Source: Candidatus Multivorans sp. (GTDB lineage Bacteria; Acidobacteriota; Thermoanaerobaculia; Multivoradales; Multivoraceae). From it: 64,000 bases of DNA. Position 1 is the first letter of the stretch; every line of letters starts with the position of its first letter. Made by a program: the position numbers and the translations under genes. The DNA lies in contig OZ245033.1 of assembly GCA_965224025.1 (NCBI GenBank), forward strand, positions 544,001-608,000, read 5' to 3'. Shown one piece after another: positions 54,250 to 59,571 of the stretch. The notes beneath the pieces were generated by a model, which had not been told where the DNA came from, did no database searches, and saw nothing but the letters and a program-made list of their open reading frames with translations.

Positions 54250-54696
54250 TCAGTTGCCCTCAGACGCAAGCCACGCCTCGGTCTCGACGACGATCAGCTC
54301 GCGATAGTCGCCCCGCATCTCCCAGGTACCCATGAAGCCCTTGGGCACGAGAAAGGTGTCGCCCGCCTTGTAGGTCGCCTTGTCCCCGTCGACGTGAGTC
54401 AGCGTGACTTCCCCGTCCAGCACCAACACGAACTCGTCATACGGGAACGGAAACGGGATATCCAGGAGAGCCGGCGCCGCGGCGTAGATGGCCACGACCA
54501 CTTCCCCTTGATGGAGGATGCTCTGCCAATGCTCGCTCTTGCCCTCCAGGACCAACTCGGCCGGGAACGGCTCCGCGCTCTCGAGCTGGGCCCGAAGCAA
54601 CTTCCCCGCGTCGAGCGGAAGGATCTCGGGAGCGGCAAACGCCTGCGAGGGCGACAGGATGCACAGCAGGACGGCGAATCGACAGAACACCTTCAT
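54250..54696 (-). CDS. Exported cupin-domain protein
   Basis: Signal peptide; PYDEFVLVLDG, AGDTFLVPKGFMGTW. Confidence 0.8.
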   Translation of the reverse strand: MKVFCRFAVLLCILSPSQAFAAPEILPLDAGKLLRAQLESAEPFPAELVLEGKSEHWQSILHQGEVVVAIYAAAPALLDIPFPFPYDEFVLVLDGEVTLTHVDGDKATYKAGDTFLVPKGFMGTWEMRGDYRELIVVETEAWLASEGN

Positions 54697-54780
54697 CAGG
54701 GAGCCTCCAGGTGTGCGCCTGAGCGCAGCGGGAGAATTGTCTGGCGTCAACAAAGGACGACGCACGATATCCAAACCGCG

Positions 54781-54850
54781 GAGCCGGCCTTGCGGCCGGC
54801 GCGTCTACCTGGCCGCCCACGGCGGCAGTCGGCGAGGACGCCGGCGCACC
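54781..54850 (+). repeat. REP-like cluster forming the IS110 target
   Basis: Hairpins GCCGGCC/GGCCGGC and GTCGGCG-AGGA-CGCCGGC followed by GCA-CC; the CAG tail of family R lies on the far side of the IS. Confidence 0.7.
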
Positions 54851-54864
54851 TGTACCTTTCCGGG

Positions 54865-55140
54865 ATGCATTCTGGCGTGTCGTTGAGAGAGGTGGAATGG
54901 ACCAGTAGCCGGACCGGCAGCTTCCGCAGCCGAGACCGCCGGTCGGTTGCGTCTCCGGCCTGCCGGAGTCACTGAAGGAAAGTCGGCAAGCAGCCAGGAG
55001 CGACCACCGGCGTACTGTGCTTCGAGCACCTGGCTGGGACCCGTGCCCTGGCTGCTTTGCCGCGTTGGACGCCCAGTGGAGAGTCAGTGCCTTAGAGCAC
55101 CAGTACAGGTACGGGCAGGCAACGCGGCATGCCGACCAGG
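54865..55140 (+). ncRNA. IS110 bridge RNA (5' hairpin, target-binding loop, donor-binding loop)
   Basis: 10-bp stems AGCAGCCAGG/CCTGGCTGCT and TGCCGCGTTG/CAACGCGGCA enclose guides matching target and donor; 5' and 3' ends approximate. Confidence 0.85.
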
Positions 55141-55171
55141 CAACACTACCGCAAGGGAGAAGGAGGACGAG

Positions 55172-56424
55172 ATGATCAGGACGTGGTTCGCCGGCGTGGA
55201 CTGGGGGTCCGAAACCCACCATGTGTGTTTGCTGGATCGGGACGGCAAGGTGAGGGGGGAGCGGGCGTTCGACCACAGCGGCAAGGGACTTGCCGCCATG
55301 GCCGACTGGCTCCTTGGACATACCCGACCGACGTCTCCGGACGAGATCGGCGTCGCCATCGAGGTGCCGCACGGACCGGTGGTCGAGACTCTCCTGGAGC
55401 GGGGCTTCGCCGTGCATTCGATCAACCCCAAGCAGCTCGACCGCTTCAGGGACCGCTTCTCCGTCGCCGGCGCCAAGGATGACCGCCGCGATGCACGGGC
55501 GCTCGCCGCCGCGCTTCGCACCGACCCCGAGTGCCTGAACCGCGTGCAACCATCCGATGCAGCCATCGTGATGCTGCGCGAGGTGTCCCGCGGCCGCAAG
55601 CAGTTGGTCGGCCAGAAGAACCGCCTGGAGAACCAGGTCCGCGACCAGCTCTGGCGCTACTACCCGCAGTTTCTCGCCGTGGTCAAGAACGAGGTGTCGG
55701 CGCCCTTCGCGCTGGCCTTGTGGCGACTGGCGCCGACCCCCGGCAAGGCTCGACGGCTGCGCGAAGCCACGCTCGCCAAACTGCTCAAGGAACACCGCAT
55801 CCGGCGCCTGACCTCCGCCCAACTGCGCGATCAACTGCGGGCCGAGCCGATCGCCGTTTCCCCGGACACCGTTAAGGCCGCCGTCGAACACATAGGACTC
55901 CTCCGGCCGGTGCTCGACACCGTCTGCCGCCAACTCGCCGACGCCGACAAGCGGCTGGAGCGGATGACCCGCGCACTCGAGGCCCCGGCCCAACGGGAAA
56001 ACGACGACGACTCCCCTAAGCCGAGCGACGCCGCCATCCTCAGGTCGCTGCCCGGACTCGGCAAGGTCGGCCTCGCCACCCTGCTCTCCGAGGCCGATCA
56101 AAGCCTGGGCCGCAGAGACCACGAGGCACTGCGTTGCCTCTGCGGAGTGGCGCCGGTGACCGTCAAGTCCGGCAAGAAGCTCATCGTCATGCGACGACTC
56201 GCCGCCAACGAACACCTCAGCGACGCCGTCTATCACTGGGGACGAGTCGCCATCCAGCATGACCCGATCAGCCGCGCCAAGTACGACGCCATGAAAGCCC
56301 AGGGAAAAACGCACGGACGCGCCATCAGACAACTCGTCGACCGACTCCTCGGCGTCGCCTGCGCCATGCTCCGAGGCCGACTCTCTTCGACCCCAACAAG
56401 CGATGCCATGCCCAGGTCGCATGA
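55172..56424 (+). CDS. IS110 DEDD recombinase (1-nt frameshift near 56380 removes the native stop)
   Basis: FAGVDWG, VAIE, AKDDRRDA, LPGLG, VKSG; alternative frame gives LFDPNKRCHAQVA-TGA(56422); AAGGAGG RBS. Confidence 0.9.
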
Positions 56425-56566
56425 CCTCCCTGACCCGCAGCAGCCTCCCCAAAACACACTTGCTAAAGGGTGGAGAGTCCCAGTACGGCCCGTCGACGTT
56501 TGTCTGACGCACAACAGCCGCTCGATAGAGATAGCCTCGTTCATTCAAAACCGAAGGAGAACTCCC

Positions 56567-57481
56567 ATGAGCCATCGAGTCGTTCGTCTCTCCGGATCCC
56601 TGGGCGCCGAGGTCCACGATCTGCCGCTGGCCGAGGTCGGCCCCGACGAGGCCGCGACGATCCGGGCGTTGCTGCTGGACCACCAGGTCCTGTTCTTTCC
56701 CGACCAGCACCTGACCGTGGAGCAGCACGTGAAGTTCGGGCAGCACTTCGGCGAGCTCGAAGGGCACCCGCACCTGAACAACCCGTTCCTCGACCACCCC
56801 GAGGTGTTCGAGCTGGTGGCGACCCGCGGTGGCGTCGCCGACGAGTGGCACAGCGACATCAGCTTCCAGGAGAGCCCGTCGGTGATGGCGATCCTGAACA
56901 TGGTCAAATGCCCCGAGGTCGGCGGCGACACGATGTGGGCGAACATGTACAAGGCGTACGAGGAGCTGTCGCCGCCACTGCAGGAACTCTGCGAGGGCCT
57001 GACCGCGCTCCACGACGCGACCCCGCACGGCAAGCCGGAGAGGATGACGATCCACCCGGTAGTCCGGGTGCACCCGGAGACCGGCCGCAAGTCGCTGTTC
57101 GTCAACGAGCACTTCACCCGCCGCATCGTCGAGCTCAGCCACGAGGAGAGCGACCACCTGCTCGGCTACCTGACCCGCTGGGCGACGAAGACGCGCTTCA
57201 CCGTCCGCTACCGCTGGCAGCAGGGCACCCTCGCCATGTGGGACAACCGCTGCACCCAACACTTCGTGCTGAACGACTTCGACGAGGAGCGGATCATCCA
57301 GCGGGTCACCGTGATGGGCGACGAGGTCGAGGGAGCGAGCGAGCCCCGCTGGGCGCCCTACGTGCGCGCCCGGCACGCCGGCGCCACCAGCCGCTACGAC
57401 CGGCAGCTCAACAAGTACCTCAAGCGCACCGTCCAGTCGCTTGAGTCGAACGCAAAGAAGGAAGTCGCGCTGGAGATGTAG
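56567..57481 (+). CDS. TauD/TfdA-family alpha-ketoglutarate dioxygenase
   Basis: LGAEV, WHSD, GGDTMWA, HPVVRVHPETGRK, WDNRCTQH; own AAGGAG RBS. Confidence 0.93.
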   Translation: MSHRVVRLSGSLGAEVHDLPLAEVGPDEAATIRALLLDHQVLFFPDQHLTVEQHVKFGQHFGELEGHPHLNNPFLDHPEVFELVATRGGVADEWHSDISFQESPSVMAILNMVKCPEVGGDTMWANMYKAYEELSPPLQELCEGLTALHDATPHGKPERMTIHPVVRVHPETGRKSLFVNEHFTRRIVELSHEESDHLLGYLTRWATKTRFTVRYRWQQGTLAMWDNRCTQHFVLNDFDEERIIQRVTVMGDEVEGASEPRWAPYVRARHAGATSRYDRQLNKYLKRTVQSLESNAKKEVALEM

Positions 57482-58568: not shown

Positions 58569-59571
58569 TCAGGACGAGGAGCCAGCGAAGTCGCCGACGC
58601 CAGCGCGCAGGCGAGCGCCCGCCCCGGCTGTCCGGGCGCCTCCGCCCACCGGGCCGCGACGTGCCCGTCCGGCCGCACGAGCAGAGCGCCCGACTCGGTG
58701 ACACCCAGCAAGACTCGGATCTGATCCGGGTCCCTGGGGCTGATCGGCGCGTGGGCCAGCAGGGACGATCCGAGTTCGTCGACGTGCGCCCGCCAGGCGC
58801 CCGGGTCGACGGTCACCAGGACGAACCCGGTGCCGACGAGGTCGAGACTGCTGCGTCCGTCGGTCAACCACAGGTGCGGGAAGCGATGGCCCGGCCGGCC
58901 AGTGGGCACGTAGTCGATCACGGGATCGGGCGGCCGCGGCGCTGGCGCGCCGTCGGGGACCATCGCGGGACCGCCGTAGGCGTAGCCGAGTTCAAGGCCG
59001 GCGAAGTTGCCGTAGCGCACCGCGGCGCGCACGGCGTCCGCCGGCGAGAGTCCGCCCGCGTGGTTGCCGGTGGCGGCGGCCGACACGCCGCCCACGAGTC
59101 GCGAGTTGTCGAGCGAGCGAGCGGTGTTCTCGACCGCCACCGGTCGCCGCTCGACCTCGTAGGTGTCGTGAAGCGACGGCGAGGCAACGCCGCGGAGCAC
59201 CAACGCGAGCTTCCAGGCCAGGTTGTCGATGTCCTGCAGCCCGGTGTTCATCCCGAAGCCGCCGGTGGAGGCATCTGATGCGCGGCGTCCCCGGCCAGGA
59301 ACACGCGGCCTCGCCGAAAGTGCTTCGACACGGTGGCGTACATGGTCCAGTAGTTGAACGACAGGATGTCGAGCTCGGGGACGCTGCCGGCCACCGCCTC
59401 GCGGATCCAGTTCGCGCACCACGCCGGGTCGACCTTCGCTCGCTCCCGATCCGTGCCGCCGAAGGGAATCTGGCTGAGCCACCGTCGCCGGCCGTCGGGG
59501 ACAACGGCCGACCTGATCGCTCGGCGCGACCAACTGCTGGGCGCCGGCGCACCCAGTGTGCGTAGATGTCG
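58569..59571 (-). pseudogene. C-terminal half of a FAD-dependent aromatic monooxygenase, frameshifted
   Basis: GRVFLAGDAAH / GGFGMNTGLQDIDNLAWKL, YEVERRPVA, PGHRFPHLWL, LVRPDGHVA; N-terminal GxGxxG domain missing. Confidence 0.8.

Follow-up and report, generated by a model that had tools for sequence, protein, structure and literature searches.

Positions 54849-56480 of the window, the whole 64-kb stretch of DNA that was analysed, very probably hold a copy of an insertion sequence of the IS110 family (IS110 group) whose movement depends on IS621-type RNA-guided recombination. Its left end carries a predicted bridge RNA, whose two-loop, IS621-type reading had been proposed in an earlier note on this DNA and is upheld, at the level of sequence, by covariation of its structure and by covariation of its guides with the flanks. 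The element is a further member of a type of system known from 2024 onwards, of which thousands of orthologues have been predicted; the NCBI family name is already 'RNA-guided transposase', so its novelty had been overrated in that note. The most interesting detail is the CC core of the clade to which the element belongs. The parts of the element and its target (window coordinates, strand) are:

54780-54848, plus strand: REP-like triple-hairpin repeat that makes up the left flank and ends in the 8-nt left target, CCGGCGCA (54841-54848)
54849-54850, plus strand: left CC core (crossover dinucleotide), common to 15/15 left ends, with divergence upstream of the target motif; left junction CCGGCGCA-CC-TGTAC
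54851-55171, plus strand: left non-coding end (LE), encoding the predicted bridge RNA; 321 nt here, 400 nt in most copies
54853-54858, plus strand: putative -10-like hexamer TACCTT, usable only once the ends are joined
54908-54914, plus strand: scar of a 79-nt deletion relative to 13/15 left ends (alignment)
55172-56424, plus strand: gene for the IS110-family DEDD/Ser recombinase, broken by a 1-nt deletion after 56379
56460-56465, plus strand: putative -35-like hexamer TTGCTA in the right end
56470-56480, plus strand: right end (left donor GTGGAGAGT) with the right CC core (56479-56480), the same in 15/15 right ends, with divergence past CAG[T/C]; right junction GTGGAGAGT-CC-CAGT
56481-56484, plus strand: right target CAGT
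59544-59557, plus strand: unoccupied target site CCGGCGCACCCAGT in the same window (1 match; 0 in 100 shuffles)

Fourteen full-length copies of the element and two truncated ones, 97-100% identical and with identical junctions, are present in the host genome, together with at least two small fragments; a tblastn search of this genome with the recombinase of an intact sister copy (P0001, E < 1e-5) returned no second, diverged IS110 paralogue. Boundaries were fixed from the 14 full-length copies and 43 empty sites, all in this one genome. Those proposed earlier recur identically in the other genomic copies, and a base-for-base check found every motif that had been named in its place. The CC core, likewise proposed for both junctions, is present in all copies and occurs as a single CC in the 43 empty sites; it is unambiguous, because the two junctions have different bases on each side of CC and an empty site has just one CC. 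The layout is that of the IS110 group, with a long non-coding left end (230-240 nt in Vicinamibacterales relatives), a short right end (54 nt from the original stop, 56424, to the core) and no terminal inverted repeats, with CC found singly in the empty site and at each junction of the element.

The element inserts at the 3' foot of a REP-like hairpin, the target starting in the 3' arm and the core lying 3 nt beyond the foot. Some 20 other genomic places resemble window positions 54780-54850 at 77-90% identity, with matches that stop at the core, and the repeat folds as DNA with z = -2.7. The 43 empty sites of the host genome match CCGGCG[CT]ACCCAG[CT], where 0.29 would be expected for one 14-mer. 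Right flanks of the copies (n = 15) were CAGT in nine, CAGC in four and CGGT in two. The host genome is 67.6% G+C and rich in CCGGCG-type hairpins.

Protein analyses were run on P0001 (417 aa), the window copy being frameshifted. P0001 matched PF01548 (1.5e-32) and PF02371 (1.1e-12), both above the Pfam cut-offs, and scored 174 bits with the equivalog NF033542, 'IS110 family RNA-guided transposase', whose cut-off is 140. Its best sequence match in the PDB was IS621 (2e-11 with a single sequence in phmmer, 1.2e-18 with a profile), and with an AlphaFold model of pLDDT 82 the top 10 Foldseek matches were all chains of IS621 or ISCro4 synaptic complexes (E ~1e-12, TM 0.65-0.67). D10, E64, D104, D107 and the Ser of KSGK (S333) align to the catalytic residues of IS621, and 30 homologues share all five without exception. 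Relative to IS621, the loop that follows the catalytic Glu lacks 3 residues when single sequences are aligned; the profile alignment is ungapped after this Glu, but misplaces it. Because the two alignments disagree, we keep the apparently shortened loop only as a lead.

The window copy itself is degraded, having lost 79 nt from the long 5' hairpin and shifted frame near the C terminus of the recombinase; guides and ends remain undamaged. The deletion removes one of the two arms of this hairpin as well as two small hairpins, and left-end folding falls to z = -1.4 in the window, against -7.4 in an intact left end; the contig of one public run (X6) carries 81 additional letters at the scar. The frameshift costs the recombinase its last ~15 residues, the shifted frame running open to 57481 past the original stop at 56422-56424. 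The suggestion that the window copy is itself a candidate recombinase thus has to be given up, with the frame shifted after 56379 and 79 nt of the left end gone; ten sister copies keep an intact 417-aa frame, and the window copy could at best be moved in trans by them. The 'long 5' hairpin' described for the element exists in intact left ends, but it is a separable module of ~135 nt, lying before the bridge RNA, that also occurs in IS21-family elements, and it is partly deleted here.

Such damage raises the question of whether the copies are a fossil family, relics of a past burst whose RNA and recombinase no longer work in the host genome. Four of the 14 full-length copies are frameshifted and two have left-end deletions, to which the truncated copies and fragments may be added, and contigs of 4 of the 23 public runs (X1, X3, X4 and X6) held neither a right-end-to-left-end joint nor one that skips the element, a result that is uninformative either way as these short-read contigs are interrupted by the repeat. 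(Contigs of X1 and X4 did contain the window's own left junction.) Against this stand the ten intact frames, the 97-100% identity of the copies, guides and ends that are undamaged in all of them, and related genomes with up to 18 near-identical copies. Occupancy of target sites points the same way: sites that match the guides perfectly (..CGTA-CC-CAGC) were occupied in 4 of 5 cases and wobble-matched sites (..CGCA-CC-CAGT) in 9 of 47 (Fisher p = 0.011), a preference for perfect matches that speaks against relics. We therefore consider a fossil family improbable and favour an element that has moved by RNA-guided recombination.

The predicted RNA of the left end consists of two stem-loops with large internal loops inside one enclosing stem, and these stems are kept by compensatory changes among 23 homologues. 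Its parts and guides in the window copy are:

54982-54988, plus strand: 5' arm of the outer stem, GTCGGCA; pairs with 55130-55136 and encloses both loops
54989-55056, plus strand: target-binding stem-loop (loop 1), with basal stem 54989-54998/55047-55056 and 55000-55001/55045-55046, an internal loop and a GTGCT/AGCAC hairpin (55017-55029)
55007-55016, plus strand: left target guide CCGGCGUAC, then U; in the sense of left target plus core, and so pairs with the bottom strand; as DNA, 55007-55015 reads CCGGCGTAC
55033-55038, plus strand: right target guide GCUGGG, reverse complement of core plus CAGC
55039-55040, plus strand: target-loop handshake guide AC, complementary to the GT directly before the core at the right end
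55058-55129, plus strand: donor-binding stem-loop (loop 2), with basal stem 55058-55067/55120-55129, inner stem 55071-55073/55114-55116 and a GTGC/GCAC hairpin (55087-55100)
55076-55085, plus strand: left donor guide GUGGAGAGUC (donor loop GTGGAGAGTC), equal to the right end plus first core base
55103-55109, plus strand: right donor guide GUACAGG, exact reverse complement of CC plus TGTAC of the left end
55110-55113, plus strand: donor-loop handshake guide UA(CG), complementary to the (CG)TA directly before the core in T-variant targets

In the 23-sequence alignment 90.9% of cells were paired and 15 of 41 pairs had changed on both sides, values reached by 0 of 500 shuffles, while slid controls gave at most 42% paired cells. 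The stem of the target loop (helix 2) was 99.3% paired, with compensatory change in 7 of its 12 pairs; within the donor stem-loop (helices 4-6), helix 4 had 4 such pairs. The enclosing outer stem, which had been read from the window alone, stands: its five central pairs occur in 20-22 of the 23 sequences and two positions show change on both sides. The 165-nt core of the RNA folds with z = -3.5 (0 of 200 shuffles fold as well). In a search of Rfam 15 with E up to 1, neither the left end of the window copy nor an intact one gave a family above noise; the miRNA, CRISPR-repeat and sRNA models that came up in this search were noise, far under their gathering scores.

Both donor guides agree exactly with the element's own ends in the window, over 10 and 7 bases, as had been claimed. 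Within the 64-kb window the 10-mer GTGGAGAGTC has exactly two occurrences, 55076-55085 and 56470-56479 (0.22 expected; 2 of 100 shuffles reach 2). Agreement between donor guide and TGTAC was found in 91 of 91 parsed elements, a count that is not independent since the parsing pattern demanded these motifs.

The target guides fit their own flanks less tightly. The left guide equals its own flank at 8 of 9 bases and T-variant sites at 9 of 9, so that the match read earlier fails at a single base, where the guide has T (55013) and the flank C (54846); as RNA this base would form a U.G wobble with the bottom strand. The right guide GCTGGG, read as reverse complement, fits CC plus CAGC exactly, but with the window's own CC plus CAGT it gives a G.T wobble; four other copies occupy exact ...CGTA-CC-CAGC sites. 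This guide covaries with its flank in homologues, being for example ACCGGG with CGGT and AAAAGG with TTTT. In the host genome the T and C variants of guide and flank at target position 6 are not tightly linked: T sites hold 2 of 5 copies with a U guide and 2 of 10 with a C guide, the latter of which would pair with a C.A mismatch.

We examined 95 Acidobacteriota elements, of which 91 could be parsed (L016, L058 and L065 failed in the target loop and L088 in the donor loop); 13 of the 91 had no right end in reach and were left out of two-flank counts. Among the parsed elements loop 1 was variable in its guides (26 distinct target loops) and loop 2 nearly constant. That guides should covary with flanks in homologues, the test set in the earlier note, was what we found: over 46 distinct guide/flank combinations cognate pairs scored 12.3 of 14 and pairs between classes 6.9, and a score of at least 12 was reached by 85% of the former and 0.6% of the latter. 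The cognate score rose to 13.0 of 14 once wobble was allowed. Flank classes were clustered coarsely (Hamming distance up to 3), which merged some of them and therefore makes the test conservative. At least eight target specificities are covered by this covariation; the right-side fit was poor in 3 of the 46 combinations (L071, L075 and L087).

Handshake guides obey the published rule (PMC11208158) at their first position. The target-loop handshake was AC in 24 and AU in 2 of the 26 distinct target loops, the donor having GT in all; of 21 distinct combinations, 20 pair the first base of the donor-loop handshake with target position 7 and 9 pair its second base with position 6. The 4-nt handshake that had been read in loop 2 thus exceeds what covaries, and only its first base is reliable.

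It could be argued that the left-end repeats act as DNA, as subterminal sites for recombinase binding, with the hairpins a gene-regulating leader and no guide RNA involved; internal copies of the element's ends do resemble protein-binding subterminal repeats, and the 23 public-run rows with sequence are all contigs, with no RNA run among them. Loop 1, however, matches the flanking host DNA and not the element, and shifts with the insertion site over the specificities counted above. The compensatory stem changes include G.U-compatible ones, as expected of RNA, where guide and DNA disagree an RNA guide could mostly still pair by wobble (hence the rise from 12.3 to 13.0), and the homologous IS621 has been proven to be RNA-guided in the accounts of PMC11208160 and PMC11208158. 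We regard sites acting as DNA as very improbable, and a guide RNA as the better reading. Chance matches beside a REP element, for which the G+C content and hairpins of this genome and the z of only -1.4 for the whole window left end might speak, are already refuted by the structure and guide covariation over 23 and 46 independent comparisons, with the exact 10-mer found only twice in 64 kb and the folding of the RNA core (z = -3.5) against them as well.

A promoter formed at the circle junction had also been proposed. The hexamers TTGCTA and TACCTT are where they had been placed and would stand 17 nt apart after end joining, and TTGnnn-17 nt-TACCnT was found in 23 of 23 distinct homologous junctions, the sequence upstream of TTG being unconserved. 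In the window's junction the boxes agree with the sigma-70 consensus at 7 of 12 positions, under the scan threshold of 9, and conservation of TACC may have another cause, given its overlap with donor recognition bases. The sigma-70 scan gave no promoter-like sites in the linear element.

We infer transcription, circle formation, RNA-protein binding and catalysis by analogy with the IS621 mechanism as set out in PMC11208160 and PMC11208158. The element would be excised as a circle, with right and left ends joined over a single CC. Joining would set TTGCTA of the right end 17 nt from TACCTT of the left end, from which the left end would be transcribed and fold into a bridge RNA with two internal loops within one enclosing stem. 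Loop 1 would pair with both strands of the target CCGGCG[C/T]A-CC-CAG[C/T], and loop 2 with both strands of the circle junction GTGGAGAGT-CC-TGTAC. The DEDD/Ser recombinase would swap strands at CC, and after top-strand exchange the two bases past each right guide would pair with the other DNA in a handshake.

This scheme and its parts resemble those of IS621 of E. coli (Durrant et al. 2024, PMC11208160; Hiraizumi et al. 2024, PMC11208158; PDB 8wt6-8wt9) in the following respects. Both have a DEDD RuvC-like domain and a Tnp domain with a catalytic Ser, and both carry the RNA in the left end upstream of the gene, target loop before donor loop. In both, the 5' guides are in top-strand sense and the 3' guides complementary, the core lies inside all four pairings, and two-base handshake guides follow the right guides. 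A -35 box in the right end and a -10 box in the left end, united only in the circle, are likewise shared (the boxes here being putative), as is insertion into REP-type repeats with a target of ~14 bp. Compared with IS621 as described there, the recombinase is ~90 residues longer (417 versus 326 aa) and 18-20% identical by structural alignment, short of the closeness of the IS621 subgroup; the core is CC, and not CT; an outer stem encloses both loops; and the left end has 400 nt, where the IS621 RNA has 177 nt.

ISCro4, or IS622 (Perry et al., 10.1101/2025.05.14.653916; PDB 9t56), shares the fold (Foldseek E ~1e-11), the RNA plan and handshake guides, and differs in its CT core, its enterobacterial host and its having been engineered for human cells. 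ISPpu10 of P. putida (10.64898/2026.03.19.712850) also inserts in REP sequences that form stem-loops, and we count as likenesses its promoter across the circle junction (putative boxes here) and its action in trans; it has a CT core. In the present element the 3' arm of the hairpin contains the start of the target, and the core follows 3 nt after the foot. The seekRNA elements of the IS1111 group (Siddiquee et al. 2024, PMC11187229) are RNA-guided DEDD transposases of the same superfamily. They differ in having the RNA downstream of the gene and long subterminal inverted repeats; in the present element the RNA is upstream of the gene, and repeats of that kind were not seen.

CC occurs in all host-genome copies, and the CT core with its nearly invariant second T, the mark of the IS621 subgroup, was not found. 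Among homologous elements CC plus TGTAC stands at the left end in 76 of 76 parsed, as it had to in a search pattern that required CCTGTAC and left other cores unparseable; 0 of 95 elements failed at this left-end step. CC is thus present in every parseable element, across recombinases 56-100% identical. For IS621 and its relatives, PMC11208158 describes the second T of the core as 'almost invariant' and read by the main chain of G63. We found no publication that describes an IS110 element with a CC core, and the supplementary tables of PMC11208160, with their thousands of predicted orthologues, may contain the clade; the seekRNA paper (PMC11187229) gives nothing on core composition.

Bridge recombinases are under development as programmable tools for DNA insertion, inversion and excision. 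In the work presented in PMC11208160 and the ISCro4 preprint (10.1101/2025.05.14.653916) only targets with an NT core are open to them (CT, GT, AT and TT having been tested). A natural, active-looking clade with a CC core would enlarge the set of addressable sites and offer a comparison for how the enzyme reads the core. The clade also amounts to a clean natural experiment in reprogramming, with its eight or more target specificities on one nearly constant scaffold, in which wobble use and handshake behaviour are visible directly in the genomes.

We tentatively suggest, as a possibility, that this Acidobacteriota clade combines recombinases whose preference for a CC core, with C in place of the T read by IS621-type enzymes, is encoded in the protein with a bridge RNA closed by its outer stem into a three-way junction. 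The CC preference may stem from the apparently shortened and differently built loop that follows the catalytic Glu (E64-V-P-H-G-P). As a separate suggestion, put forward just as tentatively, the ~135-nt hairpin may act as a portable RNA/DNA module, moving between the unrelated IS110 and IS21 families and serving a need common to both, such as insulation from outside transcription or binding of a host factor.

In its host genome the element is an ordinary REP-targeting insertion sequence, placed between two divergent genes.

The IS110-family element at 54849-56480 carries a predicted bridge RNA in the left end, upstream of the recombinase gene, and the junctions, four guide segments, two small hairpins, three stems and two promoter-like hexamers that the earlier note had read there all lie where it placed them. 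The host genome (G000; 5.14 Mb, 67.6% G+C), which contains the window, holds 14 full-length and 2 truncated copies of the element besides a few fragments, all 97–100% identical. Across all aligned left ends from this genome the sequence is ...GCCGGCG[C/T]A-CC-TGTACCTTTC, and similarity stops upstream of the target motif; across all right ends it is ...GTGGAGAGT-CC-C[A/G]G[T/C], and similarity stops beyond that point. Both alignments give the other genomic copies the same boundaries. The shared core (the crossover dinucleotide) is exactly CC, because the bases adjoining CC differ between the left and right junctions. Unoccupied sites of the form CCGGCG[CT]ACCCAG[CT], each with a single CC, number 43 in the host genome (0.29 expected for one such 14-mer), and most are located at the 3' foot of a GCCGGCG...CGCCGGC hairpin. 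On its left the element is bordered by a 70-nt REP-like triple hairpin that occurs about 20 times in the genome.

Features of the window around the insertion, which lies between divergently transcribed cupin and TauD genes
54250-54696, reverse strand: cupin gene
54780-54850: REP-like repeat of ~70 nt, three GC-rich hairpins, the 3' foot of the last being the element's target
55172 (ATG) to 56422-56424 (original stop): recombinase gene, with a 1-nt deletion after 56379
56567 (ATG): TauD-family dioxygenase gene (PF02668, 1.2e-58)
59544-59557: unoccupied target site matching CCGGCG[CT]ACCCAG[CT]

To follow the guides beyond this site, 95 elements were examined (15 from the host genome and 80 from other genomes), and the 91 that proved parsable contained 26 distinct target loops. 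Across these 91, the guides of loop 1, the target loop, vary with the insertion site.

Loop-1 guides (left / right) and the flanks of the corresponding elements
GGGGUC-CC / GAAAAGG: flanks GGGGTC-CC-TTTTC
GCGAUC-CC / CAAAUGG: flanks GCGATC-CC-ATTTG
GUGGACG-C / GGGGAGG: flanks GTGGACG-CC-TCCCC
UUCGUC-CC / GGGAGGG: flanks TTCGTC-CC-CTCCC
CCGCGCA-CC / ACCGGG: flanks CCGCGCA-CC-CGGT

Covariation of guides and flanks in homologues was a test set beforehand. Among the 46 distinct guide–flank combinations with both flanks present, cognate pairs scored 12.3 of 14, compared with 6.9 between flank classes (13.0 compared with 8.5 when wobble pairs were counted), and a score of at least 12 was reached by 85% of cognate pairs and 0.6% of pairs between classes. 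The interpretation as an IS621-type bridge RNA is supported. The fit on the right side was poor in three of the 46 combinations (L071, L075 and L087). At two of these loci, L071 and L075, TGTAC.. comes after the right end and CC, resembling the left end of the element itself and not the site programmed by loop 1; insertion into a donor-like or half-matched site could explain this, as could a leftover tandem copy. Loop 2, the donor loop, is near-constant and matches the ends everywhere, although its motifs were required by the parsing pattern, so this count is not independent.

The two bases after each right guide were compared with the handshake-guide rule given in the accessible text of PMC11208158. 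Of the bases that follow the right donor guide, the first pairs with the last left-target base in 20 of 21 combinations (U-A, G-C or C-G), and the second forms a pair in just 9 of 21. The right target guide is followed by AC, or by AU in two lineages, and in every lineage these two bases pair with the terminal GT of the right end. Within the host genome the left guide is itself polymorphic, with U in 5 of 15 left ends, the window's included, and C in 10, as is the target, with T in 4 of 15 and CAGC on the right each time. Given U·G wobble, the U guide can pair with both target variants. There is no tight linkage between guide and site variants, as would be expected of an RNA acting in trans, and occupancy is higher at perfectly matched sites (4/5) than at wobble-matched ones (9/47; p = 0.011).

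The 165-nt core of the RNA (54976-55140) adopts the proposed shape (z = −3.5), with none of 200 shuffles folding as well. Pairs of a hand-written structure were counted in an alignment of 23 sequences, namely this core and the left ends of 22 homologues found in MAGs of Candidatus Multivorans, Thermoanaerobaculia and Vicinamibacterales and in one Azospirillum genome; 500 shuffles and slid controls served for comparison. Overall, 90.9% of cells were paired and 15 of 41 pairs showed changes on both sides; no shuffle reached the observed values, and slid controls were at most 42% paired. The additional enclosing stem proposed in the earlier note was borne out, its five central pairs holding in 20–22 of the 23 sequences with two compensatory positions. 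An RNAalifold alternative, pairing the 5' arm of this stem with an invariant GCC beside stem 1, showed no covariation and clashed with the covarying base of stem 2. Elsewhere in the genome, an orphan fragment of ~200 nt (G000:C1:4322373-4322573, reverse strand; C1 is the contig) corresponds to the bridge-RNA portion of a left end, without ends or recombinase, between two unrelated genes, and its right donor guide is altered to GTGCAGG.

The window copy had been put forward as a candidate programmable recombinase; it is instead a decaying copy, with a frameshifted gene and 79 nt missing from its left end. The frameshift removes the last ~15 residues (..TLFDPNKRCHAQVA), and the shifted frame continues to 57481, stop-free by chance, crossing the right end and entering the adjacent TauD-family gene in frame. 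The resulting 770 stop-free codons (55172-57481) would be expected to be called as one fused protein; a 623-aa protein is listed for one copy in this genome. Ten copies retain an intact gene of 417 aa, two others share the frameshift of the window copy, and one full-length copy carries an early insertion of 2 bp. The missing 79 nt are present in 13 of 15 left ends, and in another copy 91 nt were deleted independently at this position. An intact left end of 386 nt folds (z = −7.4) into a ~200-nt hairpin that encloses two small ones, with the bridge module after it; in the window one arm of the long hairpin is gone (z = −1.4).

We used the intact 417-aa recombinase (P0001) of a sister copy for protein comparisons; one intact sister copy lies at L003:1365-3080. 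It matches PF01548 and PF02371, as well as the NCBIfam model NF033542, 'IS110 family RNA-guided transposase' (174 bits, cut-off 140), and its only solved relatives by sequence are IS621 and ISCro4. The ten best Foldseek matches of its AlphaFold model (mean pLDDT 82.3) are IS621/ISCro4 synaptic-complex chains (E ~1e-12, target TM 0.65–0.67, 18–20% identity). Ranked after these are TIGR-Tas proteins and Nop5/Nop56/58, in agreement with the evolutionary link proposed in the titles and abstracts of 10.1101/2024.06.21.599552 and PMC12045711. D10, E64, D104, D107 and the Ser of KSGK align to the catalytic residues of IS621, and D10, E64, D104, D107 and S333 are invariant in 30 homologues. The family is large, since 7,735 of 8,000 candidates scored were relatives.

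The element is a new member of a known system. Its novelty as a system type was not upheld: bridge RNAs were described in 2024, are predicted in 85.7% of catalogued IS110s according to the available text of PMC11208160, and are reflected in the 'RNA-guided' of the NCBI model name. What may be new is the core, which is CC in every own copy and every parsed homologue but CT in the characterised elements IS621, ISCro4/IS622 and ISPpu10, as far as the accessible sources describe them. The search pattern for left ends itself contained CC, so elements with a different core would have escaped parsing. In the excerpts available, the second T of the IS621-type core is "almost invariant" and read by the G63 main chain (PMC11208158), and the core changes tested all retained T (PMC11208160). 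A single-sequence alignment makes the loop after the catalytic Glu three residues shorter here than in IS621, a difference with which a profile alignment disagrees. Outside the supplementary ortholog tables of predicted elements, we found no paper describing a CC-core IS110. In eleven homologous elements (L045, L047-L049, L051, L053, L066, L067, L069, L072 and L089) the left end and bridge RNA are normal, but no right end is recognisable within ~1.5 kb after the gene; these may be expanded, cargo-carrying elements (compare preprint 10.64898/2026.08.14.744561).

Right ends were located by their last 11 bases alone in 78 of the 91 parsed elements, giving 23 distinct junctions. In every one, TTG[A/C]nn occupies a constant position in the right end and would lie 17 nt from the TACCnT of the left end once the two are joined; the sequence upstream of TTG is not conserved. 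This layout fits the box placement in the accessible text on IS621, where the −35 box lies in the right end just outside the 22-bp donor (PMC11208160). A scan of the linear element found no promoter-like site. The public sequencing runs that contain this DNA are short-read contigs, interrupted at the repeat. A promoter rebuilt across the circle junction is plausible on these sequence features, and only plausible, because the window's hexamers match 7 of 12 consensus positions and the TAC of the left hexamer also belongs to the donor recognition sequence.

The long 5' hairpin of the earlier note is a separable module: its core of ~135 nt, a long stem enclosing two GGGAAAC..GTTTTCC hairpins, also lies directly downstream of istB (PF01695, 2.6e-77) in IS21-family elements of the host genome. 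It had no match in Rfam.

Occurrences of the ~135-nt module
L003:1417-1530: IS110 left end of the intact sister copy
L093:2076-2207
G000:C1:2474161-2474292
G000:C1:4048787-4048915
G000:C1:1301954-1302035

Judged from sequence, the module looks exchangeable between unrelated insertion sequences. Vicinamibacterales homologues have left ends of 230–240 nt without it, and in relatives it stands beside IstB, or upstream of an IS110 recombinase just 55% identical to P0001, with the module itself ~90% identical.
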